The position numbers were made by a program, and so were the translations under genes. The notes below the pieces were generated by a model. The model worked only from the letters and a program-made list of their open reading frames with translations. It did no database searches and was not told where the DNA came from. A DNA stretch of 64,000 bases, taken from Nitrososphaeria archaeon (GTDB lineage Archaea; Thermoproteota; Nitrososphaeria; JACIWG01). Positions 30,590 to 53,745 of this stretch are shown in pieces (the stretch's first letter is position 1; each line of letters starts with the position of its first letter). Location of the stretch: NCBI GenBank assembly GCA_963752255.1, contig CAVVXT010000019.1:128001-192000 (forward strand). The letters run 5' to 3'.

Positions 30590-31279
30590 ATGTTAAAGCT
30601 GAAAGGGCTCGGCGTTTCAACTGGTGTAACAACAGGGCCTGTACTAGTCTTTAACGTACTTAAAGAAAATAAGCTGCTTGAAATTCAAGAGGAAAATCTA
30701 AGCGAACTTAAACGTTTTGAAAAAACACTCCAGAGAACCAGAGAGGACATCGAAGCTGCTTACAACAAGCTTGTGAAGGAGGGGATACGTGAAGGTGAAA
30801 TATTAAGTGCACACCTTCAGATACTTGATGATGAAGAGTTCTCAGGTGCGATAAAGACACTGATATCCAACAAGAAAATGAAAGTTGAGGATGCGGTTGA
30901 AGAAACTGTAAAGAAGCTATCAGCCACACTTAGAGAAGCAAAGTCGGAATATATTAGATCAAGGATAATAGATATAAACGATCTTGGAGAACAACTGATT
31001 AGAAATATGACATCTAAGAAGGGGGCAGCTATTTCCTCAGTAAAGCCGTCAATAATTGTAGCAAAAGAACTTGGCGCTACAGATGTAGCGACAATGGATA
31101 AGGGGAAAATACTTGGTATAGTTACTGAAGAGGGATCTCCGATTTCCCATGTTTCGATATTAGCTAGAGCACTTAAAATCCCAGCTGTTGTTAAATGCCA
31201 AAACATAGTAGATCAAGTTGAAAGCAGGGACACAATTTTTATAAACGGCTCTACAGGAGAAGTCATAATCAATCCTTAG
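30590..31279 (+). CDS. Stand-alone N-terminal half of PTS Enzyme I (HPr-binding helical domain + His phosphocarrier); no PEP-binding domain
   Basis: LKGLGVSTG, ILSAHLQILDD, YIRSRIIDINDL, GSPISHVSILARALKIPAVV; ends INGSTGEVIINP-stop. Confidence 0.88.
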   Translation: MLKLKGLGVSTGVTTGPVLVFNVLKENKLLEIQEENLSELKRFEKTLQRTREDIEAAYNKLVKEGIREGEILSAHLQILDDEEFSGAIKTLISNKKMKVEDAVEETVKKLSATLREAKSEYIRSRIIDINDLGEQLIRNMTSKKGAAISSVKPSIIVAKELGATDVATMDKGKILGIVTEEGSPISHVSILARALKIPAVVKCQNIVDQVESRDTIFINGSTGEVIINP

Positions 31280-31360
31280 GAAATAACCATGTGGATCCAT
31301 CACCAGTAAACAATAAGGTAATTGAAAAGATTTTTTATACGTTCAATAACAAATATCCTG

Positions 31361-31768
31361 ATGTCAGAAAATTTGGGCGCAGCATCGTTCAAGCAGCTTG
31401 AGAAGGAATTCGATGAACTAGACAAGGAAATGAAAGCTGCGATAAGCGATTGGCAGGGTTCATATGTTAACGACACTTGGGTTCCTAATATCCATAGAGA
31501 TTCTGAAAAAGACTTCATCATTCTAGAGAGACTGTTTAAATTATATGATAGACTAGCAGTTTTGTTTGACAAAAACAGAATTGTCCAAGAAAACCATAAA
31601 GAGTTGGAAAGGATTGTGCATGAAAATATGCTAAAATTGGAGACAGCTGTCGAACAGATGGAAAATGGAGACTTCACATTTGTTGACGCCCCCGATAAGG
31701 AATCTTTCCATACATCATGGATGAGTTTGCATCAAAGCTTGATGGCGTTCTTAAAAAAACGTCTCTAG
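31361..31768 (+). CDS. Helical His-containing protein resembling the C-terminal domain of actinobacterial Rv1126c
   Basis: SDWQ...PNIHRD...LERL...GDF..VDAP..ESFHTSWMSLH matches my recollection of the Rv1126c pattern (TDWQ...PNTHDD...DSYHTVWFELH); ATG at 31361 preferred. Confidence 0.7.
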   Translation: MSENLGAASFKQLEKEFDELDKEMKAAISDWQGSYVNDTWVPNIHRDSEKDFIILERLFKLYDRLAVLFDKNRIVQENHKELERIVHENMLKLETAVEQMENGDFTFVDAPDKESFHTSWMSLHQSLMAFLKKRL

Positions 31769-31773
31769 ATGAA

Positions 31774-32172
31774 TTAGACTTTACGCAGGTTTTTTGAATC
31801 TTCTGCAGCATTTTTGGCATCATTAAGACTACCGCCCGAACTTATCTCAACAGCTGCGGCGAATGATCCTTCAACTAGCGGAGCATCCGCGATGGTGACC
31901 TTCTCTCCAATTTCTTTAGGGAGCATCTTTATAGCTGCTTTGGAACTTATTATTGCACTTCCTAAATCGCAGACTATCAACACACCCCCTCTGTCCATCA
32001 CGTGTAAAATCGCTCTTTTTATAGCCAAAGGGTCTGTTCCAATAACTTTAGGGTCTATTGTTAAACCTCCAACAGACTCGACTATAACATTTCCTTTAAC
32101 AGCCTGGTTCAATAGCTCTTTAACACCTTCAGCAAGCCTTTTACTATGAGAAACAATGACTATGCCTACCAT
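31774..32172 (-). CDS. dhaM: PTS-dependent dihydroxyacetone kinase phosphotransfer subunit (EIIA-Man-like)
   Basis: VGIVIVSHS (phospho-His), IGTD, DLGSAI, DAPLVEG. Confidence 0.92.
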   Translation of the reverse strand: MVGIVIVSHSKRLAEGVKELLNQAVKGNVIVESVGGLTIDPKVIGTDPLAIKRAILHVMDRGGVLIVCDLGSAIISSKAAIKMLPKEIGEKVTIADAPLVEGSFAAAVEISSGGSLNDAKNAAEDSKNLRKV

Positions 32173-32175
32173 GAA

Positions 32176-32832
32176 TTATTCACCCTTCTCCCTTACGAAA
32201 TCGTACATCACCTTAATTATCAGATAGGCACTTGTTGCTCCGGGATCTTGATGGCCAGCAGCTCTTTCACCCAGATAACTCGCTCTACCCTTCTTTGCTA
32301 TCAATGGAATCGTAGACTTCAATCCCCGATCAGCTGCCATTAGAACTCTTTCGAGAACATTTACTAGACCGGCACAACTTATATCACGTGACTTGTTCAA
32401 CTCCTGCACCGCAGGGTAGAGGGTATCTACCATAGTCTTGTCCCCTGGCATAGTGCCGCCTCCTATATCTTGGACAGCTTTCAGACCTTCTACGAAAATT
32501 GCTGCAAGATCTGCATTATTTGCCTCTTTTTTATCTGATGCTGCTGATGCCATACCTGTAAACATCATGCCATACAATGGTCCTGCAGCACCACCCACCG
32601 TTTCCATTAAAACGGTACCTGTTGTCATAAGAACATCTCCAATATCTGAATTCGGATCTGCCTTCTTAAGCTGTTCAACTACACTCTTAAACCCTCTATT
32701 CATGTTAATACCGTGATCCGCGTCTCCGATAGCTGCATCCAAGTCTGTTAAATACTCCTCATTTTCGTTCATAACAAGGCTGACCCTACATATTATTTCA
32801 ATAAAATCTGACGTTTTAAGAGTTCTCGTCAA
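32176..32832 (-). CDS. dhaL: Dihydroxyacetone kinase ADP-binding subunit
   Basis: LDAAIGDADHG, GGAAGPLYG, GDKTMVD, KGRASYLGER..GHQDPGATS; TTG at 32832 preferred. Confidence 0.94.
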   Translation of the reverse strand: MTRTLKTSDFIEIICRVSLVMNENEEYLTDLDAAIGDADHGINMNRGFKSVVEQLKKADPNSDIGDVLMTTGTVLMETVGGAAGPLYGMMFTGMASAASDKKEANNADLAAIFVEGLKAVQDIGGGTMPGDKTMVDTLYPAVQELNKSRDISCAGLVNVLERVLMAADRGLKSTIPLIAKKGRASYLGERAAGHQDPGATSAYLIIKVMYDFVREKGE

Positions 32833-32863
32833 ATCCACAGCACTTTTCAGAATGTGTCCTATT

Positions 32864-33871
32864 CTAGCAGATGACTGGACCCGGCGTGTTGATTGCAACC
32901 GTTGCTGCGCGATCTCCAAGAAGGCTCTTCAATTCCTCGTCCAGTTTAAGCACTCCCACCCTTGCTCCCTGCATTTCAAGAGAGGACATGAATTCACCTA
33001 TCCAGCTAGCGTAAACAATCAATCCTAAGGAGTCAACATATTTCCTTACATCCCTGTAAAAGAGTAGTTTTTCCATATAAGGAGTGCCACCTGTTCCTTG
33101 AACCATCAAAGCTATCTTATCACCTCTAACTGTGCTCAGGTCTTCAACTACCTTGTCAACCATCATTTTTGCGAGCTCTTCAGAAGGAACCCATTTTGCT
33201 TTCTCTACACCCTTCTCACCATGTATTCCTATTCCGATTTCTATCTCATCTTCACCAAGTTCAAAGGTGTGCCTGCCTACAGCGGGAACACTACATGGGG
33301 TCAGAGCAACACCAAATTCGCGACCATTTTCTATTACTTTCTGTGATACCCGTTTCACATCTTCTAGATTTCCACCCTTCTCAGCTAAAGCGCCAGCTAT
33401 CTTGTGTACAAAAACGGTTACACCAGTGCCTCTCCTTTTCGATTTGTCTCGGATTGCAACATCATCGTTAACTATAACCCAGTCAACCATAATGCCTTGA
33501 GCCCTTGCCGACTTTGCTGCTGACTGGAAGTTCATAACGTCCCCCGAATAATTCTTTATGACTATCAGGATGCCGGCTTTAGTAGATACCTCCTTTATTC
33601 CAAAAATAATTTGTGGAATCGTCGGAGAAGTGAAGGTAGCGCCAGAACAGGCACAGTCAAGCATGCCGAATCCCACATAACCCGCGTGAGCTGGTTCATG
33701 TCCGCTGCCGCCTCCTGAAAGAAGAGCGACCTTATTGTCCGCTTTCTTATAGACCCTGTAGACGTTGTTCCATTTGGAATCTAATTTCACTACGTCAGGA
33801 AAGGCTAGCGCCAACCCCTCTAGCATTTCCCGGACTTCCTCCCCTGGTCTATTAATGAGCTTCTTTATCAC
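32864..33871 (-). CDS. dhaK: Dihydroxyacetone kinase substrate-binding subunit
   Basis: SGGGSGHEPAHAGYVG, KNYSGDVMNF, GIGIHGEKG. Confidence 0.95.
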   Translation of the reverse strand: MIKKLINRPGEEVREMLEGLALAFPDVVKLDSKWNNVYRVYKKADNKVALLSGGGSGHEPAHAGYVGFGMLDCACSGATFTSPTIPQIIFGIKEVSTKAGILIVIKNYSGDVMNFQSAAKSARAQGIMVDWVIVNDDVAIRDKSKRRGTGVTVFVHKIAGALAEKGGNLEDVKRVSQKVIENGREFGVALTPCSVPAVGRHTFELGEDEIEIGIGIHGEKGVEKAKWVPSEELAKMMVDKVVEDLSTVRGDKIALMVQGTGGTPYMEKLLFYRDVRKYVDSLGLIVYASWIGEFMSSLEMQGARVGVLKLDEELKSLLGDRAATVAINTPGPVIC

Positions 33872-33969: not shown

Positions 33970-35550
33970 TTATTGGAAGGATAAGAGCTTTTTAACTTCA
34001 ACCGTTGGCTCAGGCTGCACAATCGGCACTTCTCCTAGATAGACATTACCTGTACTTCCATCGACGGTGATCAGGTCGCCTTCCTTAACCTTGATTCCGT
34101 TGACTTCGAAGAAGCCTCTTTCCATATCGATTCTTATTTTATCACATCCTACGACACATGGCTTTCCAAACCCTCTTGCTATAACGGCTGCGTGACTTGT
34201 TAGCCCACCGACGACGGTCAGGAGCCCTTCAGAAGCAGCTACACCGGCTATGTCGTCCGGCCTTGTTTCCTGTCTCACTAGAACAACCTTAATGTCGGCT
34301 TCTTTCATTCTTATGGCATCGTTTAAGCCAAAGACTACTTTGCCGGATGCGACGCTAGGCGAAGCCGGAAGACCTTTGACCAAAGGCGTACCTTTAAAGC
34401 GTTGATCGATTTTCTTATAGAAAAGCTGCCTAACCTGTGAAATATCTATTCTTTCCAGCGCTTCCTTTTTAGTGATCAACCCCTCTTCAACCATATCTAC
34501 TAGAATCTTTATTGCAGCCATACTTGTTCTTTTACCTGTTCTACTTTGTAAGACAAAGAGCTTATCACTTTCAACAGTAAATTCTATTTCTTGCATATCT
34601 TTGAAGAATTTTTCTATCTTATAGGCGACTTGTATAATGTGCTCATACAACTTGGGCTTAGAATGCCTAAGTTCGTTTATTGGTTTCGGAGTTCTTAGCC
34701 CCGACACTATTTCTTCGCCTTGAGCTTCCGAAAGATATTCACCGTATATTTCTTTCAGCCCTGTTGACGGATTCCTTGAGAAAGCGACGCCTGTCAATGA
34801 TGACTCGTCAAAGTTTCCGTACACCATACTCATTACGATAACAGCTGTTCCTAAATCATCGTTAATCTTGTACATTCTTCTGTATGTTGAAGCACGCGGG
34901 TTCCACCATGAATCAAAAACTGCAGATATGGCTTGATAAAGCTGTTCATATGGATCTTCAGGCAGCTTTTTTCCGGTTACCTTTTCTACGAGCAATTTGT
35001 AAGATTCAGCGACATTGCTATAAAAACTTGGAGAAGAAACAGATATGTTCTTGACACCAAATGTTTCTTTAATGTCATTAAATGTGTGTGTGAAGTTCTC
35101 GTCTGGAACCTTCAAAACAGTTTTGCCGAAGCTTCTTATAAACGAGCCATAAATTTCATACGCAAACCTCTCATTTGAAGAATATTCTGCAAGCGCTTTA
35201 ACCACCATCTCGTTAACCCCTAAATTTAGAACGGTGTCCATCATTCCCGGCATAGAAAATGGAGCACCAGATCTCGCGGACACAAGTAACGGATTCTTGG
35301 AGCCTCCAAAACTTCGTCCACACTTCAGCTCTAGTTCCTTCATCTTCAAGAAAATCTTTTCCTTTAGCTCTATTGTAAGCTTCCTTTCATTAGCACAATA
35401 TCTTTTAAATGATTCCGTTGATACAATAAAACCGAGTGGAACAGGTAACCCCAACTTTGAAATTTCAACTAACATAAAACCCTTTCCCCCGATTTCAAAC
35501 TCCGTTAGGCCGTGAGCAGCTGCTTCGTCAAAAGAATAAACTAAGACCAT
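33970..35550 (-). CDS. C-terminally truncated pyruvate phosphate dikinase homolog (ATP-grasp + His swivel domains; no pyruvate/PEP barrel)
   Basis: GGKG, PLLVSARSGAPFSMPGMMDTVLNLG, AQGEEIVSG, LQSRTGKR, GGLTSHAAVIARG; ends at the linker helix; ATG at 35550 preferred. Confidence 0.9.
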   Translation of the reverse strand: MVLVYSFDEAAAHGLTEFEIGGKGFMLVEISKLGLPVPLGFIVSTESFKRYCANERKLTIELKEKIFLKMKELELKCGRSFGGSKNPLLVSARSGAPFSMPGMMDTVLNLGVNEMVVKALAEYSSNERFAYEIYGSFIRSFGKTVLKVPDENFTHTFNDIKETFGVKNISVSSPSFYSNVAESYKLLVEKVTGKKLPEDPYEQLYQAISAVFDSWWNPRASTYRRMYKINDDLGTAVIVMSMVYGNFDESSLTGVAFSRNPSTGLKEIYGEYLSEAQGEEIVSGLRTPKPINELRHSKPKLYEHIIQVAYKIEKFFKDMQEIEFTVESDKLFVLQSRTGKRTSMAAIKILVDMVEEGLITKKEALERIDISQVRQLFYKKIDQRFKGTPLVKGLPASPSVASGKVVFGLNDAIRMKEADIKVVLVRQETRPDDIAGVAASEGLLTVVGGLTSHAAVIARGFGKPCVVGCDKIRIDMERGFFEVNGIKVKEGDLITVDGSTGNVYLGEVPIVQPEPTVEVKKLLSFQ

Positions 35551-35629
35551 GAATACATACAAATAGTCTGAAATATTAAATCTTATTGGAAAAACATTTA
35601 ATAGACAAAGCTGCTTTTCCAAAACTTAT

Positions 35630-35896
35630 ATGATCAAAGGTGAAGTAACACTGTTGAACAGGACTGGGTTGCATGCCCGACCCGCTGCAAAGTTAGTTCA
35701 AATGACAAAGAAGTTCAGATCCAAAATAAGCATAATTAAGGGAGATCAAGAGGCTGACGCTAAGAGTGTAATCAGAATCCTCTCCCTTGGCGCAGAGCAA
35801 TGGGATAAGATCGTTATCAAAGCAGACGGAGAAGATGAAAAAGAAGCTTTTGAAGCGTTAATGACACTTATCAGCAATAAATTTTGGGAGGAGTAA
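35630..35896 (+). CDS. ptsH: HPr phosphocarrier protein
   Basis: GLHARPAA (His15), DAKS (Ser46), ADGEDE. Confidence 0.95.
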   Translation: MIKGEVTLLNRTGLHARPAAKLVQMTKKFRSKISIIKGDQEADAKSVIRILSLGAEQWDKIVIKADGEDEKEAFEALMTLISNKFWEE

Positions 35897-36071: not shown

Positions 36072-36713
36072 ATGATACGATTGATGCACAAAGACGACCC
36101 CAGACCCTACATAGAAGAAAAGGGATTACATATAAAGCTGTACAAAAACCTTGTTAAAAAGAGACCTAAACTATGGAATGCACTACAAAAGAATCTGGGG
36201 GAACTGCTAGAGTATTATCAGGAAGACCCAGACAAGCTTATTTTACTTTACGAAAAAACCATATCAGACGACTTTCTAGACAGCCGCGAAAGCCCAGAAA
36301 AGTTTTGGATTTTTCTTGTTCTAAAATTTTCTATAAGTTACCTTAATGAGACAAAAAATGTCTTTAACTTCCATTATGATTCCGTCAAGAAATTTTATGA
36401 TAACGAAATTCCGGCTCTAATGAAAACTGACATCGAAATTGCTCAACTTTTAGATAATGAGCCGTACAGAAACCTTTTTCTTAACAGACTTTACTCTACG
36501 AGAAGGGATTTATATCTAAAACTGGATAGGCTCTTGAAAACATATGATAATTTCAAGGAAGTGTCTAAGAAAGATGAAGAATTAGAAGGTAAACTGAATA
36601 AGAAACTTTCAATTTTTAGATTTATCCACCCACTTAGATTTAACAGATTTATAAAAGAAATTGAAAATAACCAGCCAAGTTTAGAAAAATACATTCCTCT
36701 AGTTTATTCTTAA
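36072..36713 (+). CDS. Hypothetical protein
   Basis: 213-codon AT-rich ORF; no motif recognised. Confidence 0.6.
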   Translation: MIRLMHKDDPRPYIEEKGLHIKLYKNLVKKRPKLWNALQKNLGELLEYYQEDPDKLILLYEKTISDDFLDSRESPEKFWIFLVLKFSISYLNETKNVFNFHYDSVKKFYDNEIPALMKTDIEIAQLLDNEPYRNLFLNRLYSTRRDLYLKLDRLLKTYDNFKEVSKKDEELEGKLNKKLSIFRFIHPLRFNRFIKEIENNQPSLEKYIPLVYS

Positions 36714-37185: not shown

Positions 37186-39874
37186 ATGGAGAATTTCAGT
37201 AAACCACAGTGGCACACTCTTGAACCTGATGCCGTATTGCAGAATATTGGTAGCAATAGAGATGGTCTTAGCGAACAAGAAGTTAAAGGGAGAAGGGAAA
37301 AGTATGGAATAAACGAAATAAGAAGAGAGAAGAAGATTTCTCCATTGAAGCTCTTTATCGAACAATTCGAGAATATTCTGATCATCCTATTATTGGCAGC
37401 TACAGCATTTTCTCTTTTGGTCGGAGAAGTGCTGGATGCTGTAGTAATTTTCGCTATAGTTATAGCCTCAGCTGGCCTAGGATTCATAGAAGAATTTCGT
37501 TCTGAGAATGCAGTACAGCTTTTGAAACAACTTGCAGCGCCCACTGTTACACTGATAAGAGAAGGAAAAGAGCAAGTAGTCCCTTCCTCAGATATCGTTC
37601 CTGGAGACATAGTTGTACTGCGAGTGGGAGATAAGGTTCCTGCTGACATTAGGTTAATTGAAGTTTTCAATTTAAAGATAGATGAAGCACCTTTAACTGG
37701 AGAGTCTCTTCCGGTAGAAAAGAACGTAACGGTCCTACCAGAAAATACAGTTATCCCGGATATGACAAACATGTCTTTTAGTGGTACTGTTGTAACCTAT
37801 GGCAGAGGCTTAGGTGTTGTAGTTTCTACTGGGAATGAAAACAGAATTTGGAAAAATCGCTAAAACTGTGCAAGAAGAGCAAAAAACCGAGACTCCACTG
37901 GAGCGAAGAATGAATACAATCAGTAAGACGTTGATTTCTTTTATGTTGTGTGTTTGTGCTCTTGTTGCTTTCTTTGGAATAATAAGAGGCTATGCTATTT
38001 TAGATATGATTCTTTGGGGAATCAGTTTAGCTGTGGCAGCCGTACCTGAAGCGTTGCCCGCTGTTGTTACTGGTTCATTAGCGGTAGGTATGTACGAAAT
38101 GGCTAGGAGAAAAGCGATAATAAGAAGACTTCCTGCAGTTGAAACTTTGGGAGGAACCTCTATAATATGCTCAGATAAAACAGGTACAATGACAAAGGGT
38201 GAAATGACGGTCAGAAGGATGTATGTTGAAGATAAAGTTATTGAGGTTAGTGGCGCAGGTTACGAGCCCAAAGGAGCTTTTTATATCGATGGCCAGGAAA
38301 TCGATTCTAAAAAATCTGAGGGACTACTAAGACTTCTAAAAGCATCGGCATTATGCAATGACGCAAAACTCGCCAATGAAAAAGGCAAGTGGATGGTTAT
38401 TGGGGATACTACGGAAGGCGCACTACTAGTTGTTGCAGCCAAAGCTGGAATTTATGTGGAAAAGTTGAATCAAGGAAGAGTAAACGAGATACCTTTCACT
38501 TCGGAACGAAAGAGAATGACTACCATCCATGTTGTCCCAGAGTTCGATAAGAAACTTGTTTTGATGAAAGGGGCCCCTGAAGTTGTCCTTGAGAAATGTA
38601 GCCGTGTCTTTATGAACGGAAAATCCACTTTGCTGTCACAAGAGAAAAAGAAAGGAATTTTAGAAGTAAATGAGAAGATGGCTTCTGATGCACTACGAAA
38701 TCTTGCATTAGCATACAGAGAGGAGATAGACGTTCCTGATGATCTCGACGAAGAATTTGAGAGAAATTTCATATTCTTGGGTCTTGTCGGAATGATAGAC
38801 CCTCCACGCCCAGAAGTAAAAGAAGCACTCAAGCTTTGCGATAACGCTGGAATAAAGGTCGTGATGATAACAGGAGATCACAAGTTAACTGCAGTTGCAG
38901 TCGCTAAAGAACTGGGCATAGTCAAAGATGACAACAGTTTGATCCTAACAGGTGCTGAACTTGAGAGAATGCCAGAGGAAGATTTTGACAAGATTGTAGA
39001 AAATGTAAAGGTATACGCAAGAGTCTCTCCCGAACACAAAATGAGAATAGTCAAAGCTCTAAAGGAAAAAGGACACATCGTAGCCATGACAGGTGACGGG
39101 ATAAACGACGCGGCAGCTCTCAAGATGGCGGACATTGGTATTTCAATGGGAATTACTGGAACTGAAGTAACTAAAGAAACATCTGATATGATTCTAGCAG
39201 ACGACAACTTTGCAACTATCGTCAATGCCGTAAAAGAGGGAAGAAGAATATTCGACAACATCAAAAAGTATCTTGTATATCTCTTGCAATGCAACCTAGC
39301 AGAAATCGCTACAATGCTAGTCGCAACCCTCGCAGGCCTTCCAATACCTCTGACAGCGATACAATTACTCTGGGTGAATCTAACCACAGATGGCCTACCT
39401 GCTTTAGCATTAGGAATCGATCCAGCAGAATCCGATTTAATGGAAAGGAAGCCAAGGCCACTAAAAGAAAGTATAACAACTAAAAGGGAAAATTGGATAT
39501 ACTTCGTTATAGTTCCTGCAGTCCTAACATCGATACTCCTCATTAACTTTACTTGGTCGTTGGCCAACGAATCCATGGTGGAAGCTAGGACGCAGACATT
39601 CACAGTCATGATAGCATGCGAACTTGTAATAGCTCTATCTTGTCATTCAGCAAAGCATTTATTCTACAAATCTAAGCCATTTTCCAACAAATTCCTATGG
39701 ATTGCTGTAATAAGCTCTTTCCTAATGCAATTCTTTGTCCTTTATGTTCCCTTCATGCATGTACCTTTTGACATTACCTTCCCAAGCCTTCAGGATTGGA
39801 CACTTGCCGCAGTCTCAGCTACCATAATATTCTCTACTGTAGAAACACTAAAGTTCCAAATAAGGAAGAAATAG
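37186..39874 (+). pseudogene. Cation-transporting P-type ATPase (type IIA, Ca2+-like), split by a +1 G near 37832 (possible sequencing error)
   Basis: LTGES, PEALP, DKTGT, KGAPE, GDGIND; removing one G from actGggaatg restores STGMKTEFG. Confidence 0.92.
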
Positions 39875-45298: not shown

Positions 45299-46264
45299 CT
45301 AGCTTATAGGCGACTCCATAAGTTTTGCTTTTGATGTGAACTCCTTTTCCCCTCTAATAATCCTCAGGGACACCTCATCACCTGTCTTCCTCTTCCAAAG
45401 CTGCGCTAATAGGTTACCTAGATTGTTAACCCTGTCTTTATCAACCTGTACTATAATATCACCTTGACGCAGGCTCGCGTAATACGCTGGACTACCAGTG
45501 ACAACTGAGACGACAAGAACTCCGAAGTCGACTGCAAGATTATAATATTCCGCGATACCGGCGTTAAGGTCTATGCCGTTTATGCCGAGCCATGGTCTTA
45601 CGACCCTGCCGTATCTTATGATTTCTTCAGCCACCCTCTTAACCGAATTGCTGGTTATGGCGAAGCCTATACCCTGAGCGAAAGGAATTATCGCGGTACT
45701 CATCGCGACAACTTGACCGTTTAGGTTGATTAAAGGGCCACCACTGTTTCCGGGGTTAATCGCCGCATCGGTCTGAATCAAATCCTCAATGACCGGTCCG
45801 ACCTGCGTTTGGATTTTCCTCTTAAGAGCGCTGATGACTCCGGCTGTAACTGTTGGACCACCAGCTAAACCAAACGGGTTTCCAAGGGCAAGAACAAACT
45901 GTCCTACCTTCAGATTATTGGAATCGAAAAATTCTGCGGAGGTCAGCCCAGTCTTATGAATCCTCACAACTGCTACATCTGTCAGCGAATCACTACCGAC
46001 AACCGTCCCTTCGTATAGCTTGTTATCAAATAAAGTTACGGAAATCTTCCCAGCGTTAGATACAACATGGTTATTAGTAACTATAAAACCATCAGCCCCA
46101 TATATAATACCTGATCCTAGACCTTCAACAGGCATGCTATGGAACAGGAAGTCTGAAATAAGGGTTACCGTGTTGACACTAACTACGAATTCGCTTGCCT
46201 TTTCAACTGCTTTTATAACCTTATCTTCGTCTACGGGGATCATTAAAATCACTCTTTTGAGCAT
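45299..46264 (-). CDS. HtrA/DegP-like trypsin protease with PDZ domain
   Basis: GSG, TNNHVV, DVAVV, IQTDAAINPGNSGGPL, PWLGI. Confidence 0.94.
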   Translation of the reverse strand: MLKRVILMIPVDEDKVIKAVEKASEFVVSVNTVTLISDFLFHSMPVEGLGSGIIYGADGFIVTNNHVVSNAGKISVTLFDNKLYEGTVVGSDSLTDVAVVRIHKTGLTSAEFFDSNNLKVGQFVLALGNPFGLAGGPTVTAGVISALKRKIQTQVGPVIEDLIQTDAAINPGNSGGPLINLNGQVVAMSTAIIPFAQGIGFAITSNSVKRVAEEIIRYGRVVRPWLGINGIDLNAGIAEYYNLAVDFGVLVVSVVTGSPAYYASLRQGDIIVQVDKDRVNNLGNLLAQLWKRKTGDEVSLRIIRGEKEFTSKAKLMESPIS

Positions 46265-46365
46265 ATTAGTGTTTAAAAAACTTTTTGAAAATCGTGTCTA
46301 TTACAAACATTAAAGTGTAAAAAATTTAATATATACGACCCCTGCCAAGATGACTGGTGGAATAA

Positions 46366-46539
46366 ATGAGTATGAAATGTCCAGCTTGTGGTTCAACAGA
46401 TATAACGTTAAACCAGCAGCTTAATCTAAAAGACGCAAAGGTCAGGAAAATCTATCTAAGCGGTAATTGTACCAAGTGTAAGAGTCAAGTTACAATAGAG
46501 TATACACCCACTACCATCCGCCAACAGCTTGCGGAATAA
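46366..46539 (+). CDS. 57-aa zinc-ribbon protein (below the ORF-track cutoff)
   Basis: MSMKCPACGS...GNCTKC; GGTGG SD-like sequence upstream. Confidence 0.65.
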   Translation: MSMKCPACGSTDITLNQQLNLKDAKVRKIYLSGNCTKCKSQVTIEYTPTTIRQQLAE

Positions 46540-46556
46540 AGTGGGACCAAGGGATT

Positions 46557-47135
46557 TTGTTCAAACGCATAGGATTAACAGGTTCACCTGGTACGGGCAA
46601 GAAAACCCTTGCAAGAGGGTTTGCCTTGAATGCGGGATACAGGATTTTGAACATCAACTCGCTCTGTATTTCAAAAGGCGGATCAATCGGCAGAGACAAA
46701 TATGGAATAGTTGTTGACACAGAAAAACTTTCCAAGATCATAGCTGAAGAGATTAAAAATGATAATTTCATTTTAGTGGGCCATCTTCTCCCATACGTTA
46801 TAGTCTCTAAAGATATAGAATTAGCAATCGTTCTAAGATGTAACCCATATGTGCTAGAAAAGAGACTTGAAAAAAGAGGATACCCTCATAAGAAGGTTCT
46901 AATGAATATTGGAGCTGAGACTCTTGGAACATGCTATTTTGATGCGTTAAAGGAATTCGGCTGTGGTAAGATACATGTGATAGACACTTCATCAAAGAAG
47001 CCTGGAGAAGTTGTCAGGGAATCCTTGAAAATTCTAGAAGGAAATGCACGATATGATGGCTCAGATATTGACTGGTTAAGCCTTGTTAGGAAAAAAGGCG
47101 ACCTGCGAAGGATCTTTCCTGATTCCTACTATTGA
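46557..47135 (+). CDS. Archaeal adenylate kinase AK6/Fap7 family
   Basis: TGSPGTGK, VGHL, VLRCNP..LEKRL..RGY, IDT, IDWL. Confidence 0.88.
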   Translation: MFKRIGLTGSPGTGKKTLARGFALNAGYRILNINSLCISKGGSIGRDKYGIVVDTEKLSKIIAEEIKNDNFILVGHLLPYVIVSKDIELAIVLRCNPYVLEKRLEKRGYPHKKVLMNIGAETLGTCYFDALKEFGCGKIHVIDTSSKKPGEVVRESLKILEGNARYDGSDIDWLSLVRKKGDLRRIFPDSYY

Positions 47136-47207
47136 TTTCTACTATGAATAATAAATGGATAGAACCTAAACCCGAATATATTGGAGTCCCTATATTAAAA
47201 TTCTAAG

Positions 47208-47223
47208 TGCGGCGTCCGGGATT
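47208..47223 (-). repeat. att-like tRNA 3'-end fragment (Gly-like, AATCCCGGACGCCGCA)
   Basis: GC-rich T-stem/acceptor-type sequence at the switch from housekeeping genes to AT-rich cargo. Confidence 0.6.
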
Positions 47224-47386
47224 AAAAACCCTCCGGTAATAATCTTCACATAAAAAATAGGGGGAAATACCTCTCCAAAAAAAGAAATTAAAGATTTAAA
47301 TGTCGTTATAACTGCTGATGCTTTTGTTATTTTAATTATTTTAGGTTTTTCACATTTCCTTAAAAAAGGGTGTAAAAGAGTTTGTA

Positions 47387-47734
47387 TCAGCTATTAAAAG
47401 TATATTTTATTCTCTTTTTATTTTGTCTCATATCATATATTATATAAAAAAGTATCAATAATGCCAAAAATATAAAAATGTAGGAAAAAACCAAATAGTA
47501 CGCAGAAGAGGCAGGATTAAAACGATAGGTGAGACTATCGGCTAACACAAGCAATGTTATAGCTAATGTAAAATAATAGTTCCATTGTGATGATTTTCTG
47601 ATTTTTTCAAGTTCACTCATGACCTTACTTGTGTTCTCTCGAAAAGAAGATTGCATCGTATTCATTTCGTTTTCTATGTTATCAAATCTTTTTTCTAAAC
47701 TCTCCAATTTTTCGTTTATCTGTTTATCTTCCAT
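47387..47734 (-). CDS. Hypothetical protein (coiled coil + 2 TM)
   Basis: ORF composition. Confidence 0.6.
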   Translation of the reverse strand: MEDKQINEKLESLEKRFDNIENEMNTMQSSFRENTSKVMSELEKIRKSSQWNYYFTLAITLLVLADSLTYRFNPASSAYYLVFSYIFIFLALLILFYIIYDMRQNKKRIKYTFNS

Positions 47735-48118
47735 AAAGAAAATATTAGAGTACTTTTATAAAATCTTTGGAGAAAGAAATGCTTGACGCTACGATCAAAC
47801 CGTAGAAGTAGGTTGGTAAACGTGTGGATTAATTATTAAAAAAGTGAATATACTTCCTTAGATCTTATTGGATCTCTTTTCAATCTCAAGATCCTTATGA
47901 ACATAAGGATGATTGCTGTAATTGTGACTGTAAAACTTGCATTGTAATACAAAAATATGAACAATGACGAAGCAAATAAAGATCCCTGCAACTAACGACA
48001 TAAGTCATACACAAATTATTTATCTTTCTTTTAGCGATTCTTCAAGTCTTATACCTATGAATAAATGTAATAGAATAGATTACTTCATCAAATAATATTA
48101 ATAAACATCTAAATTAGT

Positions 48119-48538
48119 ATGATTAACTACGTGAGTAATGAAAGATTAGAGACGATTAGATTAGTGATGCAAATAAGAGTTAGGTTATCCCAAAGAGCAA
48201 AAGATTTGTTATCAGCAATTCAAGAAAAACACCCAAAAATTGAGATAAACAAGAAGATAATAGATTTTTGTGCAGAGTTAGGAGACATAAGTGGTTTTTG
48301 CGATAAGAATACTAACAGGTGGATAGACGATGTAACAAGATACATGTCTGGCTGTATAATTATAGAAGAAGGAGTCGACTTTGACCTCATGTCCGACTTA
48401 TTAATGGCATTACTACCTCGAATAGTCGGCATGCAAATTGACTTCACAAAAGGTCCTCCCTTCAAAGCGATAGGTTTCAACATTGAGGCATCTTTAAAAG
48501 ACTTAAAAGCAAAAATAGGAGCCCATCTCAATCGATGA
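48119..48538 (+). CDS. Hypothetical protein
   Basis: 139-codon ORF with TATA-like upstream sequence. Confidence 0.55.
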   Translation: MINYVSNERLETIRLVMQIRVRLSQRAKDLLSAIQEKHPKIEINKKIIDFCAELGDISGFCDKNTNRWIDDVTRYMSGCIIIEEGVDFDLMSDLLMALLPRIVGMQIDFTKGPPFKAIGFNIEASLKDLKAKIGAHLNR

Positions 48539-48694
48539 GATTATAAAATGTCAATTAACCAAATATCGTAGATTATTATCACGTTATTCTTTTTTAAACC
48601 CATTTCACATTCTCTCTGAATAGTAATTCCAATTGATTTTGGGTAAATTAATACAATTTTATCGAGAGTATTTTGCAATGTGACGACTAAAGTT

Positions 48695-49471
48695 TTATGA
48701 AGAAAAAAGTAAAGCATCCCTGTTTGTAAATGGCTCAATTTTAAGGAGAAGAAATAATGAAGAAAGTAATCCTATAAAGAAACAGGAAACATGAACAATC
48801 CAAACAACGTTACTCGAGACATTAAAAAATGTTTGATAAGAAGAAATAAGGTAAAGATAAACAACAATTATGATAACGTTAAAGATAGGGCTGAATATGT
48901 TTTTAAAGAGAATTATTTCATTCTTAACTTTCTCTCCTATGGTAAGATGAACTGATTTCTTTTTTAGTGACGATAATATCCCTTTATAGCCAAACGTAAA
49001 TCGTATTATGAGGTATAAGTTATAAAATGCTGTCGATAATATAACTCCTTCGGTCCCATATGCTACACCTGACGCACCTCGGAAGTTGGGATTTGAAAAA
49101 ATGAAAAGAAAGCCTGTAAGCACAGAAGAGACAAATGGTATTATACAGTATATGCGAACAACCTTTTTTGGATTCCGATAATTGTTAAACAATAACAGTG
49201 CCAAAAATAGGGTTGTTGACTGAATTAAAGACTGCATGTTATTCAAAAGGTGGGAATAAGATTCATGAACAAACATATAGGTAAAGAAACCCCAAAGAAG
49301 ATTTTCCTTTGTTTCCGATAATGCAGGAAGTAATTTAGGATTGGAAACTTCTGCCTTATAAACCGCATTACATATAAGATAGAAAGTAAAGTAGACAAAG
49401 ACGATAATCGCATATGGTTTGAAGAATTCTATTATCTTTCCCAATTTAGGTTCAGATGTTTTAGTCATCAT
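48695..49471 (-). CDS. Rhomboid family intramembrane serine protease
   Basis: FTYMFVH..YSHLLNNM, GASGVAYG (catalytic Ser), VH in the last TM. Confidence 0.82.
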   Translation of the reverse strand: MMTKTSEPKLGKIIEFFKPYAIIVFVYFTFYLICNAVYKAEVSNPKLLPALSETKENLLWGFFTYMFVHESYSHLLNNMQSLIQSTTLFLALLLFNNYRNPKKVVRIYCIIPFVSSVLTGFLFIFSNPNFRGASGVAYGTEGVILSTAFYNLYLIIRFTFGYKGILSSLKKKSVHLTIGEKVKNEIILFKNIFSPIFNVIIIVVYLYLISSYQTFFNVSSNVVWIVHVSCFFIGLLSSLFLLLKIEPFTNRDALLFSS

Positions 49472-49480
49472 TATTATTTA

Positions 49481-50125
49481 TTAATAACTTGATAATACTG
49501 AAGATAAAATTCCATAACAAGCACTTAAAAATGAAGTAAAAACGATAATTAAGAGTGTCCAATCCTTTGGCGTTTTAATTGAGTCTATCCAGATATTGCC
49601 TTTAATACTTTTTAAAACATCATTTTTTGAGACGTTAGAAGGTAATGTCTGAAGAGAAAATGAGATTTGACCGCAAACTGTTATTCTTGGTTGGTTCAAA
49701 TCAATATAGCCTAAATATTCATATTTACTTGAATCACCAATTGTAGGGGCATCAGTAATAAGATGTATTTGTGACCAATTAATATTATCTAACGACATTT
49801 CTAATTTAGATATATTGAATAAATTGGCATATTGTGACCATAAAGATACATATAACTTTCCTCTTGAATTAAAATAATTAGGAGATATATTATTTGTAAT
49901 TGTAAATTCATTTTTGTTGGTAGGTAATTTTGTTATTTTTTGATAATATTCTAACTCTGGCTTCCATTGTGAGAGATAATAAGTTACAACGAATGCTATT
50001 GTGATAGATATTATTAGAGAACATCCTGATTGAATTAAAGTAACCATATTATATTCCTCCCTTTCATTGCTATACCTCAAAGTGTTTAAGTCCTTTTCTA
50101 TTAGTAAAAAGTAGAACAAGTGCAA
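49481..50125 (-). CDS. Hypothetical membrane protein (N- and C-terminal TM; start probably near 50047)
   Basis: ORF composition. Confidence 0.55.
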   Translation of the reverse strand: MHLFYFLLIEKDLNTLRYSNEREEYNMVTLIQSGCSLIISITIAFVVTYYLSQWKPELEYYQKITKLPTNKNEFTITNNISPNYFNSRGKLYVSLWSQYANLFNISKLEMSLDNINWSQIHLITDAPTIGDSSKYEYLGYIDLNQPRITVCGQISFSLQTLPSNVSKNDVLKSIKGNIWIDSIKTPKDWTLLIIVFTSFLSACYGILSSVLSSY

Positions 50126-50159
50126 TAAAGAAAGTGATTATTCCCATTATATCGAGAAA

Positions 50160-50951
50160 CTATTTTACGCTTTTCATTGCACTTATAACTTTTTCATTTA
50201 TAATTTGTCGCGATTCTTCGATAGTGCTTACCTTTACTTCCCCCCACTCTGGATCAGCTTTCCAATCTATCAAAAAGTAATTTCTTCTTGGATAAAGTTC
50301 TGCAAACTTGAGACCTTTTGATTTATGAATAAAGTTAATCCGATAAGGAAGTAAGGTGTGCCTAATATTTCCTTGATCCAATTCTTCAATAATTTTCACA
50401 GTTTCATCCCAAACCTTTCTTACATCGTCATTTGTGATATAGTTAGCCAAATCATGGAGTTGTGTTAGAGGTCGTTCTATTTCCGTTCTACGTCTGGTTT
50501 CAACATCAATTAGTTTGACATATTTTTTCCCATTTAATTCATAAGAGAAACAAATTTGTTTAAGCGTAACCTGTATATCCTCTGATATGTACTTAACAGC
50601 TATTTTAGTCCTCTCATCAAAACTTGGGGCAATAAGAATCATTCTTGGCATTTTGTCTTCTATTTTTTCTTGAGAATAATTCTTGAAGAAACTCATCCCT
50701 CTCTCAAGAAGATAATCAAAGTAACCCAAGGCTTGCATCAACTGCCCAGCATCTTCCTTAATTTTTAATTCCACCACAGTCAAGGTTCCTTGTGCGTCAA
50801 CACCATCCAAGTCCATTCTGGTGCCATAAGGTACAGTCCTCCTTTGTTTTTGGAGTAGTCTGAAACCCTCCTCTATCTGTGACGGATCATTGAAAAGAAT
50901 TTCTTCAAGTTCTGTTTCAGATTCTATTTTACATTCCTTTATTGCCATCAA
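50160..50951 (-). CDS. NucS/DUF91-like PD-(D/E)XK endonuclease domain protein
   Basis: E.ELEE, RMDL.GVD..G.LTVVELK, QALGY, PRMILIAPSF. Confidence 0.78.
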   Translation of the reverse strand: MMAIKECKIESETELEEILFNDPSQIEEGFRLLQKQRRTVPYGTRMDLDGVDAQGTLTVVELKIKEDAGQLMQALGYFDYLLERGMSFFKNYSQEKIEDKMPRMILIAPSFDERTKIAVKYISEDIQVTLKQICFSYELNGKKYVKLIDVETRRRTEIERPLTQLHDLANYITNDDVRKVWDETVKIIEELDQGNIRHTLLPYRINFIHKSKGLKFAELYPRRNYFLIDWKADPEWGEVKVSTIEESRQIINEKVISAMKSVK

Positions 50952-51060
50952 ACAAAATTATGGATTATTACTTATATCCTTTCTGCTTTTGTTATTGGTA
51001 ACACAGATATAAAGCAAATAATTAGGACTTCATAACGTTACATATTTAGCTCTATTTTAA

Positions 51061-51117
51061 TGGAGCCAGTGGGATTCGAATCCAAATAGGTTCAAAGCCA
51101 ATAAATAAACGAATTAA
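51061..51117 (-). repeat. att-like site: tRNA-Pro 3' fragment plus conserved element-end sequence
   Basis: tggagccagtgggattcgaatcca is 22/24 identical to the tRNA-Pro end at 7460; its flank resembles that at 53746. Confidence 0.75.
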
Positions 51118-51127
51118 ATAATGTTTC

Positions 51128-51583
51128 CTATACATCAAGTTTATTGTCTTTTAAAAAATCTTTCCATTTTTCTATACATTGGGATGCTAATTCAAAGGCA
51201 TCCATTTGCCCATTTTTGGTTTCAATTGTATATTTGATACTTATCGTTGCGCCAAGTTTATAATACCTTCCGGCAAATTTAGGATCTAAAAGACTACGAT
51301 TTTCATTTTCGAGATGCTTTATGCTATTGCAAATGTCTGCACAAAGACTCAGACATGTCTCATGATTAATGAATTTTTCAACATGCGGTTTAGGAATTGG
51401 AAGCGTATTATCATTTTTAATCCACTCCTTTAGATGATAGCAATTCATAAAAAATGCATAAACTTCGTCTTGATAAAAATCTGAATTTCGATCATGAACT
51501 CTTCCAAAATTAGTAGTTTTGAAAACTTCATACCATCTCATCATTCTATTATACTGTTCTTTGTACTTTGGTTCTTGTGACAT
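51128..51583 (-). CDS. Hypothetical helical protein, possibly HEPN-like
   Basis: AFFMNCYHLKEW...DICNSIKH (NxxKH). Confidence 0.5.
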   Translation of the reverse strand: MSQEPKYKEQYNRMMRWYEVFKTTNFGRVHDRNSDFYQDEVYAFFMNCYHLKEWIKNDNTLPIPKPHVEKFINHETCLSLCADICNSIKHLENENRSLLDPKFAGRYYKLGATISIKYTIETKNGQMDAFELASQCIEKWKDFLKDNKLDV

Positions 51584-51750
51584 TAATATTTAATGTATTG
51601 TCAATAACATATATTTAGGTTTTTAAAATGGTGGATCCTTGGTGGAGACTTTCTCTCAAAATCGGAAATATGGCAAAATACATGAATGTGTTTTGAAGCA
51701 ATGATGGGTAAGATGCAATACTTAAATAGAATTTGCAGAATTTACGGTAT

Positions 51751-52554
51751 ATGAAGACCTTCAAGATCATTGCTTTTTCAGATGTCACATTATGGAGTAA
51801 ATTACCTGAGGGATTAACTAACATTAAGAAATGGCTAAGCATAAAGTCCACAAATTCTCCTTTATCAACATACAGCTATGAAGAAATAGTTGACATCTTA
51901 AAACCAGATGTAACAATTTTAGCAGGAGATTATGACGAAGACTTTTATGATAGATTTTATGTTGGCTTCTACAAGTTCCTAAAATACGCTGGAGAAAGAT
52001 CAAAAGTGCTTGTAATCACAGGTAATCATGAAGACCCGAAATTCGGGGGCAGCGTAATCTTATATTCAGCAGAAAAAGTAAACAATATCAAAGGTTGCAG
52101 AGAGATATCAGGAAAAAGAATTAAAGTGAACGGTTTTTCCTTTCTCGGATTAGGATACTATAATACATATCATAAAATAAAACCTTTAATTGAAAAATAT
52201 TCTGAAAAGGTCGACATAATTGTATCCCATTGTGATCTCCAAAGATTACCTGCACTTTCTAACATTAAACCTAAACTAATTATTAACGGTCATTCTCGCT
52301 CGGGAAAGGTTTTAGTCAGAGACGTGCCAGTTATTCTTACTAACAGATTGAAATTTGTCTTGATTGAATTTAAAAATAAAAGACTTTCAAACATTCAAGA
52401 ATATAAATATCCATTCATAAAAGATGGAAAAAACTGGAGCATGATTGTAGAAAATAGTCGTAATCCATATCGTTATAGAATTATACATTCAGATTATGAT
52501 CCTGAGCCGAATTACGATTGGGTTAGTAAATATAAGTGGTTTAGAACTTTGTAG
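51751..52554 (+). CDS. Calcineurin-like metallophosphoesterase
   Basis: AFSD, LAGD, GNHE, VSH, NGHS motifs in order. Confidence 0.82.
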   Translation: MKTFKIIAFSDVTLWSKLPEGLTNIKKWLSIKSTNSPLSTYSYEEIVDILKPDVTILAGDYDEDFYDRFYVGFYKFLKYAGERSKVLVITGNHEDPKFGGSVILYSAEKVNNIKGCREISGKRIKVNGFSFLGLGYYNTYHKIKPLIEKYSEKVDIIVSHCDLQRLPALSNIKPKLIINGHSRSGKVLVRDVPVILTNRLKFVLIEFKNKRLSNIQEYKYPFIKDGKNWSMIVENSRNPYRYRIIHSDYDPEPNYDWVSKYKWFRTL

Positions 52555-52637
52555 AAATATATAAACATCCTTTTACTCTCATCCGGATAGCAAATTTAAA
52601 AAACATTATTAATCTATGATCCGATAATTTATCTGCT

Positions 52638-53582
52638 TTGAGCAACCTAAACCCTTCAATAATATCACGTTTGGCAAATATAAAAGCCACATATGAACAT
52701 GCTTTACTAATACTGACTAATCCAACGCCTTTGGATGGAGGGATTGCACTACTCCTTATGGATAATACGTTAGAAGCCGCTTTCAAGTTGGTTTTGGACA
52801 AGAAAGACGAATGGAAAAATATACAAAAAGGAGATGAAGATTTTCCGATGATATTGAATAAAGTGATTCAAACCGAGGAATTAAATGGGTTAAGAGAATA
52901 TCATATGCAACTAATAACATTACGTAAGGTCAGAAATTCCTTTCAACATCAAGGGATTATTCCAGATTTAAACACAATCCTAAACGATTATAGACTGCTA
53001 ACTGAACTTGCACTTAAGTTAATCTCGATGAATTATTTCCTAATCAAGTGGGAAGACGTATCTCTGTCGTTACTAATTAAAAGCGAATGGATAAGAAAAA
53101 TATATGGGAAAGCGGAGGCTGCCTTCACAGAAGGAGATTATGCCGCAGCTGCTGCTTATCTAATCTACACTTTTGAGCTTGTTAAGAGTATTGCAAGACT
53201 TCAGATATTTGGTTCAGGTCTTACTTCTCATAGAGTAGCAGTCAAAGAGAAATTCAAAGATAATCCTCTTGCAGACTATCTCTTTACCTTGGATGAGGAG
53301 GTGGAGGTCTTCAAGCTGGGGCTAAATTATCTGGACTTACGTAATTACTTTGATTTAGCTCAAGAAGTTGGAATAGACAGTATTTTGTATGAATTTAAAA
53401 ACAAGGAAGAAAATGTGGTTATCAATGAATTCAAGTTAAAATTGGCAGAGGCTAAAGACGACAATATTCTGAAACAATGGTATATTCACGCACGAGATCC
53501 TATCTTGAGATTTGTGATCAGAATGGAAGCAAGTTGGCGGTTATATAACATCTGGAAAGTCATGGAACGTGAGGGACCATAG
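52638..53582 (+). CDS. Putative HEPN-domain protein
   Basis: ALLLMDNTLE...F..IL...RKVRNSFQH (Rx4H). Confidence 0.6.
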   Translation: MSNLNPSIISRLANIKATYEHALLILTNPTPLDGGIALLLMDNTLEAAFKLVLDKKDEWKNIQKGDEDFPMILNKVIQTEELNGLREYHMQLITLRKVRNSFQHQGIIPDLNTILNDYRLLTELALKLISMNYFLIKWEDVSLSLLIKSEWIRKIYGKAEAAFTEGDYAAAAAYLIYTFELVKSIARLQIFGSGLTSHRVAVKEKFKDNPLADYLFTLDEEVEVFKLGLNYLDLRNYFDLAQEVGIDSILYEFKNKEENVVINEFKLKLAEAKDDNILKQWYIHARDPILRFVIRMEASWRLYNIWKVMEREGP

Positions 53583-53745
53583 GCATGATTATTGTATTTA
53601 AAATCCTTGTAGATACCGATTACGCTGCATACAGCACGAGTTGCAATATTTCATAGAACAAATTAAAACGTAGTGTATAAATACGAATCTGCATTAAATT
53701 TTATAGAAAAAAGTCCAACATACGAATTACTGTCTCATGAGCAAG

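Follow-up and report, generated by a model that had tools for sequence, protein, structure and literature searches.

A helical Rv1126c-like protein encoded with a barrel-less dikinase and a barrel-less Enzyme I in an archaeal dihydroxyacetone kinase cluster: a candidate station in a histidine phosphoryl relay

Histidine phosphotransfer (HPt) domains, of which Ypd1 and the HPt domain of ArcB are examples, are four-helix bundles with a conserved histidine. The PTS-regulation domains (PRDs) of BglG/LicT-type regulators are helical too, carry conserved histidines that are phosphorylated by proteins of the phosphoenolpyruvate (PEP)-dependent phosphotransferase system (PTS), and are often joined to a nucleic-acid-binding domain. 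Phenylphosphate synthase is one of the multi-component dikinases built with a swivel domain. In HpeHI and rifampin phosphotransferase, an ATP-grasp domain works with a swivelling His domain to bring phosphate to a site on another domain or subunit (PMC12167813, PMC4844700). For Mycobacterium tuberculosis, the report on VadK (Rv1127c; EMBO Rep 2026, PMC13400623) describes autophosphorylation of His422 with ATP and Mg and calls Rv1126c the ‘operonic partner’ of this enzyme; in the literature found, Rv1126c is mentioned only in that paper (three times, always in Methods), its preprint and one small-RNA review. Here a gene of a Nitrososphaeria archaeon is compared with these systems. It lies in a stretch of 64,000 nucleotides (nt) (assembly GCA_963752255.1, contig CAVVXT010000019.1, positions 128,001 to 192,000 of the forward strand; termed the window, with positions counted from its first letter), at 31361-31768 on the plus strand, within a cluster of PTS and dihydroxyacetone kinase (Dha) genes. 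Its product is predicted to be a four-helix bundle with a beta-hairpin, related to Rv1126c and devoid of the winged helix-turn-helix (wHTH) of that family. The cluster also encodes a pyruvate phosphate dikinase (PPDK) without the PEP-binding barrel (PPDK-t) and a short Enzyme I (EI) that ends after its swivel His domain (EI-N). The reading favoured here, with a probability of roughly 0.5, is that the helical protein is the partner of PPDK-t that replaces the missing barrel as docking or relay station and feeds EI-N, HPr, DhaM and DhaKL.

The closest functional analogue of the helical protein would be the PEP-binding barrel of EI and PPDK (PF02896). In natural fusions the helical domain takes the same place, right after the swivel domain; it is present where the EI barrel is absent, and the shared role proposed here is that of a second docking station of the swivel histidine. 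The folds are unrelated, a helical bundle of 120 residues versus a TIM barrel of ~300. Multi-component dikinases would be a looser parallel: the HpeHI type has a large substrate-binding domain and small-molecule acceptors, whereas a small helical bundle and a likely protein acceptor, EI-N, are encountered here.

The open reading frame (ORF) encodes 135 residues between an ATG at 31361-31363 and a TAG at 31766-31768, inside an open frame of 31322..31768 (+). Position 31361 is the likely start, because the three closest homologues (86, 66 and 50% identity) all begin at the same Met in the alignment. The sequence TTTTTTATA at 31331-31339 (+), centred 26 nt upstream of the ATG, is a possible archaeal TATA box and would fit a leaderless messenger RNA. 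Among sequencing runs, none of RNA was listed, and those of DNA had shares of 0.26 or less. The ORF and the motifs from which the original prediction had started, DWQ (residues 30-32), PNIH (42-45) and ESFHTSWMSLH (114-124; quoted there as ESFH..W..LH), were all found in place, as was the location directly after EI-N, with 81 nt between the EI-N stop and the ORF. Neither Pfam (scanned at E <= 0.1) nor NCBIfam placed the protein in a family above threshold, the matches being noise (Ppx-GppA_III, 16.2 bits against a cut-off of 27.3; xseB, 14.2 bits); no Pfam profile assigns it to the HPt, PRD or MarR families, and it has no wHTH. The family to which it was assigned by the following searches is without a Pfam or NCBIfam model, a solved relative or an assigned function.

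A word-based homologue search returned three close relatives only. With a four-sequence profile (HMMER, 1.84 billion representatives), 180 proteins were found at E <= 1e-3, nine of them at E <= 1e-10. Most of the 180 are 195-215 residues long and match at about residues 80-195, and the ~75 N-terminal residues that precede the match bear a weak likeness to DtxR/MarR/CggR winged helices (best E 2e-4). The target and its three close homologues start at the helical domain; by its sequence, the target is a variant of the Rv1126c-like family that lacks the wHTH. Scanning one genome for each species gave at least 481 confirmed relatives among at least 599 pattern matches, with the best 80 loci coming from Nocardia, Mycobacterium, Acidimicrobiia and Alpha-, Beta- and Gammaproteobacteria. 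The helical domain was also seen at the C terminus of two proteins of 448 (P0027) and 438 residues (P0044), after a Transketolase_N half or a HAD hydrolase domain; these architectures may be real fusions or gene-calling artefacts.

The link to Rv1126c was made through orthologues of other Mycobacterium species. The M. palustre member (P0153, 202 residues) is 34% identical to the target over 115 residues (BLASTP, E 4e-15) and shares the WQ, PN.H.D and S.H..W...H motifs, and a cluster 74% identical to it (P0062) matches the archaeal four-sequence profile at E 1.5e-6. Relatives of the M. palustre protein number 3030 at E <= 1e-5, the mycobacterial ones having 201 residues, and NCBI lists the mycobacterial orthologues under the name ‘MarR family transcriptional regulator’. 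The family gene is directly downstream of a barrel-less PPDK in M. palustre, M. uberis and four metagenome-assembled genomes of Mycobacterium. Homology of the target to the family of Rv1126c is supported by these orthologues, the synteny and the published statement of partnership, and the helical domain appears to be the same in both; the resemblance that the original prediction had pointed to, including the extra N-terminal wHTH and the truncated PPDK next door, stands as an identification by orthology. The conserved family set (F17, K25, W31-Q32, N43-x-H45-x-D47, D51, S115-x-H117-x-x-W120, H124 and R134) is complete in the target. The genomic settings differ, a Dha/PTS cluster here versus methylcitrate or fatty-acid genes beside Rv1126c.

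Pairing with the dikinase was assessed by BLASTP with the window PPDK-t at 81 loci, namely the best 80 bacterial loci of the at least 481 relatives plus one of an archaeal genome (G033); locus counts are based on stop-to-stop frames, and the gene order was misjudged for at least one locus (L057). The helical domain is fused to a barrel-less PPDK at 14 loci and adjacent to one on the same strand at 39 (together 53 of the 81), lies within 851-6622 nt of one at six more, and has none in the flank at 22, several of which are at contig ends. Unfused dikinase frames extend at most 148 residues past the aligned end, which is too short for a barrel of ~300 residues, and PEP-utilizers_C was found in none of the 23 family proteins scanned with Pfam. 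Among eight relatives of 718-799 residues, six consist of PPDK_N, PEP-utilizers and a C-terminal helical domain, one has PEP-utilizers only and one is without a Pfam domain; a protein of 1,049 residues (P0118) unites a second swivel domain, the dikinase and the helical domain in a single chain. Many bacterial barrel-less PPDKs have a conserved tail of ~100 residues after the swivel domain, which the archaeal ones lack.

A swivel-His ORF is present at 71 of the 81 loci, and a second one besides the dikinase at 24; the 71 include 14 of the 22 dikinase-less loci, where a small swivel-His protein occurs with a 520-residue protein of unknown family. By this distribution, what constantly accompanies the helical domain is a PEP-utilizer swivel His domain, in most cases the one in a barrel-less PPDK. 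In the work on the M. tuberculosis pair, co-expression of Rv1126c raised the solubility of VadK, and the two proteins were separated by washing with 2 M NaCl (PMC13400623). The original proposal that truncated PPDK and helical protein form a module conserved in Bacteria and Archaea is borne out, with natural fusions included, and the target is very probably the partner subunit of PPDK-t.

The window PPDK-t is encoded at 33970-35622 on the minus strand and contains an ATP-grasp and a swivel His domain (PPDK_N 2.4e-41, PEP-utilizers 8.7e-23, no PEP-utilizers_C). It matches NF004531 at 490.4 bits (cut-off 456), and its match to TIGR01828 is limited to positions 3-522 of 865. The likely start is the ATG at 35550, giving 526 residues, in the numbering of which the catalytic histidine is H453, the His of TSH, invariant in the dikinase alignment.

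The AlphaFold2 model of the target is confident (predicted local distance difference test, pLDDT, 96.3; predicted template-modelling score, pTM, 0.88), with helices at 3-32, 48-71, 73-78, 80-101 and 116-134. The protein had been described as all-helical, which holds for four long helices but not for a beta-hairpin at 33-42, between helices 1 and 2. No PDB entry was matched by Foldseek at E <= 1e-3, and the family profile matched, among PDB sequences, only the wHTH part of the longer members, which leaves the helical domain without a PDB relative. VIA-align found generic helical bundles only (140 chains at Z >= 8; best Z 12.2, an unrelated bundle), an HPt protein (8pbw_B) ranking 49th with Z 9.2, a root-mean-square deviation of 2.5 and 99 aligned residues. 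The best ESM Atlas score, 0.81, was to unnamed actinobacterial clusters and serves as a lead only. An HPt domain and the target would have in common the four-helix bundle and a conserved histidine, which in the target is predicted to lie opposite a phospho-His donor, close to a Lys and a Gln, and possibly a role in His-to-His relay; unlike an HPt domain, the target has no PF01627 match, and its donor would be a PEP-utilizer swivel domain and not a receiver domain. The target differs from a PRD in having neither a PRD match in Pfam (E <= 0.1) nor a PRD among the top 50 structural rows.

Conservation was read from a family alignment of 126 sequences. N43, H45 and H124 are invariant; W31, Q32, D51, H117 and W120 are conserved in 125, and F17 in all 125 sequences with a residue there; D47 and S115 are conserved in 123, R134 in 117 of 124 and K25 in 101, and position 29 is T or S in 107. 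The histidines, whose conservation had been singled out beforehand as decisive for the helical protein, are therefore among its most constant residues, and the motifs quoted in the original prediction did not arise by chance. The polar members of this set (K25, S/T29, W31-Q32, N43, H45, D47, D51, S115, H117, W120 and H124) appear, from the secondary-structure string, to cluster at the end of the bundle that bears the hairpin and the 102-115 loop.

A complex of PPDK-t (526 residues) with the target was predicted in three runs, with each protein given its own alignment, together with three controls. The interface score ipSAE was 0.74, 0.71 and 0.71, versus 0.19 for the best control; the mark used for this score is reached by 116 of 157 solved complexes and two of 215 mismatched pairs, a calibration that is rough here given the custom alignments. 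At least 93% of contacts are shared between the runs, the pLDDT of the partner is at least 86, and the interface comprises 76-83 contacts over both domains of PPDK-t. Memory of solved structures is an unlikely source of the score, because no similar complex has been solved. The contacts of lowest error are between the catalytic loop of PPDK-t (450-461) and K25, I28, S29, Q32, G33, 109-112, H117 and M121 of the target, with H453 touching K25, H117 and M121; K25, Q32 and H117 are thus contact residues conserved in the family (101, 125 and 125 of 126, respectively). The model, which follows the course suggested in the original prediction (the monomer alone and with the PPDK), supports binding of the target to PPDK-t, and it is the predicted complex alone that places the catalytic His of PPDK-t beside H117.

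Binding could also be that of a passive structural subunit, which would cover the PPDK-t surface bared by the loss of the barrel and thereby aid its solubility, stability or oligomerisation. In that case EI-N or HPr would receive the phosphoryl group straight from PPDK-t, and the conserved His/Asp cluster would be a structural or metal site. The solubility effect of Rv1126c on VadK fits such a subunit, as do the report that VadK autophosphorylates after Rv1126c has been washed off (PMC13400623), the fusions that place the helical domain exactly at the former barrel position, and the size of the predicted interface with its contacts on both dikinase domains. The most conserved residues, however, are polar, clustered and predicted to touch the catalytic His, which is more typical of an active site, and at 14 of the 22 loci that have no PPDK-t in the flank the family is accompanied by other swivel-His proteins. 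A passive role is regarded as unlikely, and the relay or docking station remains the preferred reading.

The acceptor side of that reading is encoded around the target. EI-N (30590-31279, +; 229 residues) comprises the HPr-binding N domain and the swivel His domain and lacks the PEP-binding barrel (Pfam PEP-utilisers_N 1e-22, PEP-utilizers 1e-21, no PEP-utilizers_C; NCBIfam TIGR01417 positions 1-230 of 565). HPr (35630-35896, +; 88 residues; PF00381 9.2e-28) carries the His15 motif GLHARPA and is divergent from PPDK-t. On the minus strand are the DhaM-type EIIA(Man), the phosphoryl-donor subunit of dihydroxyacetone kinase (31774-32172; PF03610 1.4e-22), DhaL (Dak2; 32176-32919; PF02734 5.6e-53) and DhaK (Dak1; 32864-33871; PF02733 1.2e-109), so that the target and EI-N on the plus strand converge with DhaM, DhaL, DhaK and PPDK-t. 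The true start of DhaL is probably downstream of the listed TTG, to judge from an archaeal orthologue (of genome G033) that aligns to residues 30-245.

In the genome of the window (G000; 94.7% complete, with a full-length archaeal small-subunit rRNA at 1446 bits), no full-length EI was found. Its swivel His domains are three in all, those of EI-N, PPDK-t and a PEP-synthase-like locus on another contig, and the latter, split into three frames, contains the sole PEP-utilizers_C. This split gene (G000:C12, ~160200-162500; locus L090, 3235-5516) consists of a frame with PPDK_N (329 residues), a frame with the swivel domain and the start of the barrel (207 residues), and a third with the rest of the barrel (241 residues) that overlaps the preceding one; the split could be genuine, or it could stem from a frameshift or from an error in the assembly.

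Comparable gene sets were found in other archaea. Genome G033 (68% complete), of the same family (f1) and the sole match in a class-wide genome search with the narrow four-sequence profile, encodes EI-N (249 residues), HPr, DhaM, DhaL and DhaK on one contig, at 43-68% identity to the window proteins, and on another contig a wHTH-helical protein and PPDK-t beside a sugar-acid dehydratase and ABC permeases. Genome G455, of another family of the same phylum, has EIIC-GAT, ribulose-phosphate epimerase, HPr, EI-N (250 residues), the Rv1126c-like gene, PPDK-t (538 residues) and EIIA_2 in a row over ~6 kb, and genome G505 has the Rv1126c-like gene, EI-N (248 residues), HPr, EIIC-GAT and EIIA_2. A third context for PPDK-t and the helical module is that of genome G485, with two Rv1126c-like genes, PPDK-t, a 608-residue protein with a C-terminal swivel domain and three PEP_hydrolase-like genes. 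In its cluster (L106, contig G485:C34, 2001-10415), the PEP_hydrolase-like genes belong to PF09370, and one of the two Rv1126c-like genes has diverged and has a DUF4423-type wHTH.

An evenly drawn sample of 401 genomes of the phylum contained an EI N-domain in 16, of which 13 have full-length frames (562-619 residues) and three (G000, G455 and G505) have frames of 233-280 residues. Strong family matches (E <= 1e-25 with the helical part covered) were found in G000, G455, G485 and G505 only. Some match to the family profile was seen in 182 of the 401, those outside these four being weak (23-33 bits); the weak matches were not counted as family, for among the matches listed they cover wHTH positions only, save a 23-bit row of genome G423 that spans 9-177. 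Of the 10 genomes of family f1, two (G000 and G033) have EI-N, and these same two have the helical family. The helical family is thus present in all four genomes with a barrel-less EI, and a strong match is present in none of the 13 with a full-length one. That its presence in archaea tracks loss of the EI barrel is well supported, and it is probable that the pair of PPDK-t and helical protein feeds EI-N and HPr in this archaeon. The proposed bridge from dikinase to EI-N/HPr is strengthened in that its context recurs in a second archaeal family; the HPt-like nature ascribed to it is not, there being no Hpt match in Pfam and a fold match no better than that of generic bundles.

The target might be a chance neighbour unrelated to the surrounding Dha/PTS genes; it is not adjacent to PPDK-t in the window, where the two are 2.2 kb apart in the same cluster with three dha genes between them. 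The recurrence of the same gene set in G033, G455 and G505, and the agreement of presence and absence with the barrel-less EI, make such a coincidence highly improbable.

In bacteria the family occurs in different surroundings, and across the loci its contexts are diverse, ranging from Dha/PTS genes and a sugar-acid dehydratase to acyl-CoA ligases with biotin carboxylase and acyl-CoA dehydrogenase. The 80 bacterial loci contained neither an EI N-domain nor an HPr or Dha gene; EI-N BLAST matches at two of them were swivel-domain cross-matches only. Such diversity is expected of a regulatory module and, with the wHTH of most members, the weak DtxR/MarR/CggR similarity of that part and the MarR name given by NCBI, would suit a phosphorylation-sensing regulator, that is, a wHTH factor whose helical domain reads or accepts the phospho-His of the dikinase; the window copy would then be a regulatory remnant that modulates PPDK-t. 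The target and its three close homologues, however, are without the wHTH yet keep the conserved cluster and cannot bind DNA that way; the Pfam scan gave no PRD or MarR match for the target; and enzyme fusion and the salt-resistant co-purification described in PMC13400623 are unusual for a plain regulator. A regulatory role for the window protein is accordingly rated as quite unlikely.

A protein family of ~520 residues was noted upstream of the Rv1126c-like gene, or fused to it (P0013, L049), at 32 of the 81 loci (L017:4699-6261 and 31 others), usually accompanied by a protein of ~250 residues that ends in a swivel His domain. Pfam and NCBIfam gave no match for this family, its AlphaFold2 model has a pLDDT of 87.3, Foldseek found nothing at E <= 1e-3, and the best VIA Z is 5.9; the ~520-residue protein may bind the substrate in a new kind of dikinase with several components. 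One proteobacterial operon (L017:2270-13500) is composed of genes for an acyl-CoA ligase, a small swivel-His protein, the 520-residue protein, a further acyl-CoA ligase, the Rv1126c-like protein, a barrel-less PPDK, a biotin carrier, a biotin carboxylase and a PYC_OADA carboxyltransferase, and its layout of kinase plus carboxylase resembles phosphorylation-then-carboxylation pathways for phenolic compounds.

The metabolic look of bacterial operons with the 520-residue protein of unknown fold, a second swivel-His protein, acyl-CoA ligases and biotin carboxylase would be in line with a small catalytic or ligand module, in which the His/Asp/Asn cluster binds a metal together with a small-molecule phosphoryl acceptor or water. 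With PPDK-t it would form a two-component small-molecule kinase or a phospho-His phosphatase, and the PTS genes would be served otherwise. Dikinases made of two or three components, in which the substrate-binding part is separate, are known, HpeHI being one (PMC12167813), and three invariant or near-invariant His and two Asp would suit a metal site. Against this, a helical bundle of 120 residues leaves little room for a substrate pocket, no further donor for EI-N is encoded in the archaeal PTS clusters, and presence of the family goes with loss of the EI barrel; such a module is held to be very unlikely.

Under the preferred reading of a docking or relay station, PPDK-t would autophosphorylate its swivel His from ATP, as shown for the M. 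tuberculosis enzyme, and its phospho-His loop would dock on the conserved face of the helical protein in place of a PEP/pyruvate barrel. The phosphoryl group would then reach the swivel His of EI-N, through either transient phosphorylation of H117 or a templated transfer from His domain to His domain, and would pass on to His15 of HPr, the His of DhaM, DhaL-ADP and finally dihydroxyacetone on DhaK. PPDK-t and the helical protein together would in this way replace the PEP-binding C-terminal domain of EI, and the relay would be driven by ATP and not by PEP. A ping-pong course through a residue of the helical protein is attractive, because the homologous swivel domains of PPDK-t and EI-N would compete for one docking face, and the second swivel-His protein that recurs in bacterial operons and fusions is in keeping with a function between two such domains. 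The odds that the helical protein acts as a transfer station, and not just as a passive subunit, are put at about even. Covalent phosphorylation of H117, beside which the model places K25 and Q32, is a tentative suggestion. Equally speculative is the full scheme of an ATP-driven archaeal PTS that runs from PPDK-t through an H117-phosphorylated four-helix carrier to barrel-less EI, HPr and EIIA/DhaM, with the same carrier family as output partner of VadK-type and wider bacterial swivel-domain kinases.

Several observations weigh against the relay reading. As to the protein itself, the candidate H117 lies in the first turn of helix 4, next to the beta-hairpin, whereas the His of HPt domains is mid-helix, and all VIA-align matches stay under the caution level of the tool for helical bundles (~13). 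The window lineage is on a long branch in a quick tree of the helical domain and departs from the Rv1126c family in being without the N-terminal wHTH of ~75 residues, in a seven-residue insertion (83-89) and in the loss of the family-conserved D44, Y50, H62, R78, Y82, E122 and E125. In the predicted complex, the hairpin and helix 2 of the target also contact ATP-grasp residues 99-101, 219-228, 340 and 343, and the invariant H45 and H124, which could be metal-binding or structural, are outside the contact list, which by the rules of the tool is no evidence of non-contact. As to the genomes, PPDK-t was not found in G505 (88% complete), and G485 carries the family with no EI-N found; the archaeal genomes with the pattern come from two families only, represent at most two or three independent lineages, and are in several cases incomplete. 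The ancestral role of the family cannot be PTS-specific, because the 80 bacterial loci are without EI N-domain, HPr and Dha genes. Finally, a regulator encoded beside its operon would likewise give co-occurrence, and most members have the wHTH and the MarR-type name.

Some further features of the window were noted. A 213-residue ORF at 36072-36713, just 3′ of HPr and on the same strand, has no Pfam or NCBIfam match. Two overlapping plus-strand frames at 37186-37863 (225 residues) and 37835-39874 (679 residues, with DKTGT) look, by their sequence, like one P-type ATPase broken by a frameshift. The stretch 46001-54000 has a G+C content of 0.30-0.35, versus ~0.40-0.44 in the rest of the window, which may mark an island of foreign origin.

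What was found speaks for a PTS and a DhaKLM kinase that do without the PEP-binding domain of EI. A literature search, which covered few subscription journals, returned no description of such a system or of a PTS driven by a barrel-less PPDK. The finding would represent a His relay of the PTS type in which the energising module and one helical component are new. For the biology of the family, it gives a partner context to a large group, the thousands of relatives of a single mycobacterial member. VadK is reported to be required for tuberculosis virulence, and the archaeal clusters supply an obvious downstream acceptor, EI-N and then HPr, that is missing from the mycobacterial context, by which the question of partner function for VadK-type kinases becomes a testable relay. 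A small helical domain would thereby be added to the docking stations of swivelling phospho-His domains, which have so far been TIM barrels and large substrate-binding domains.

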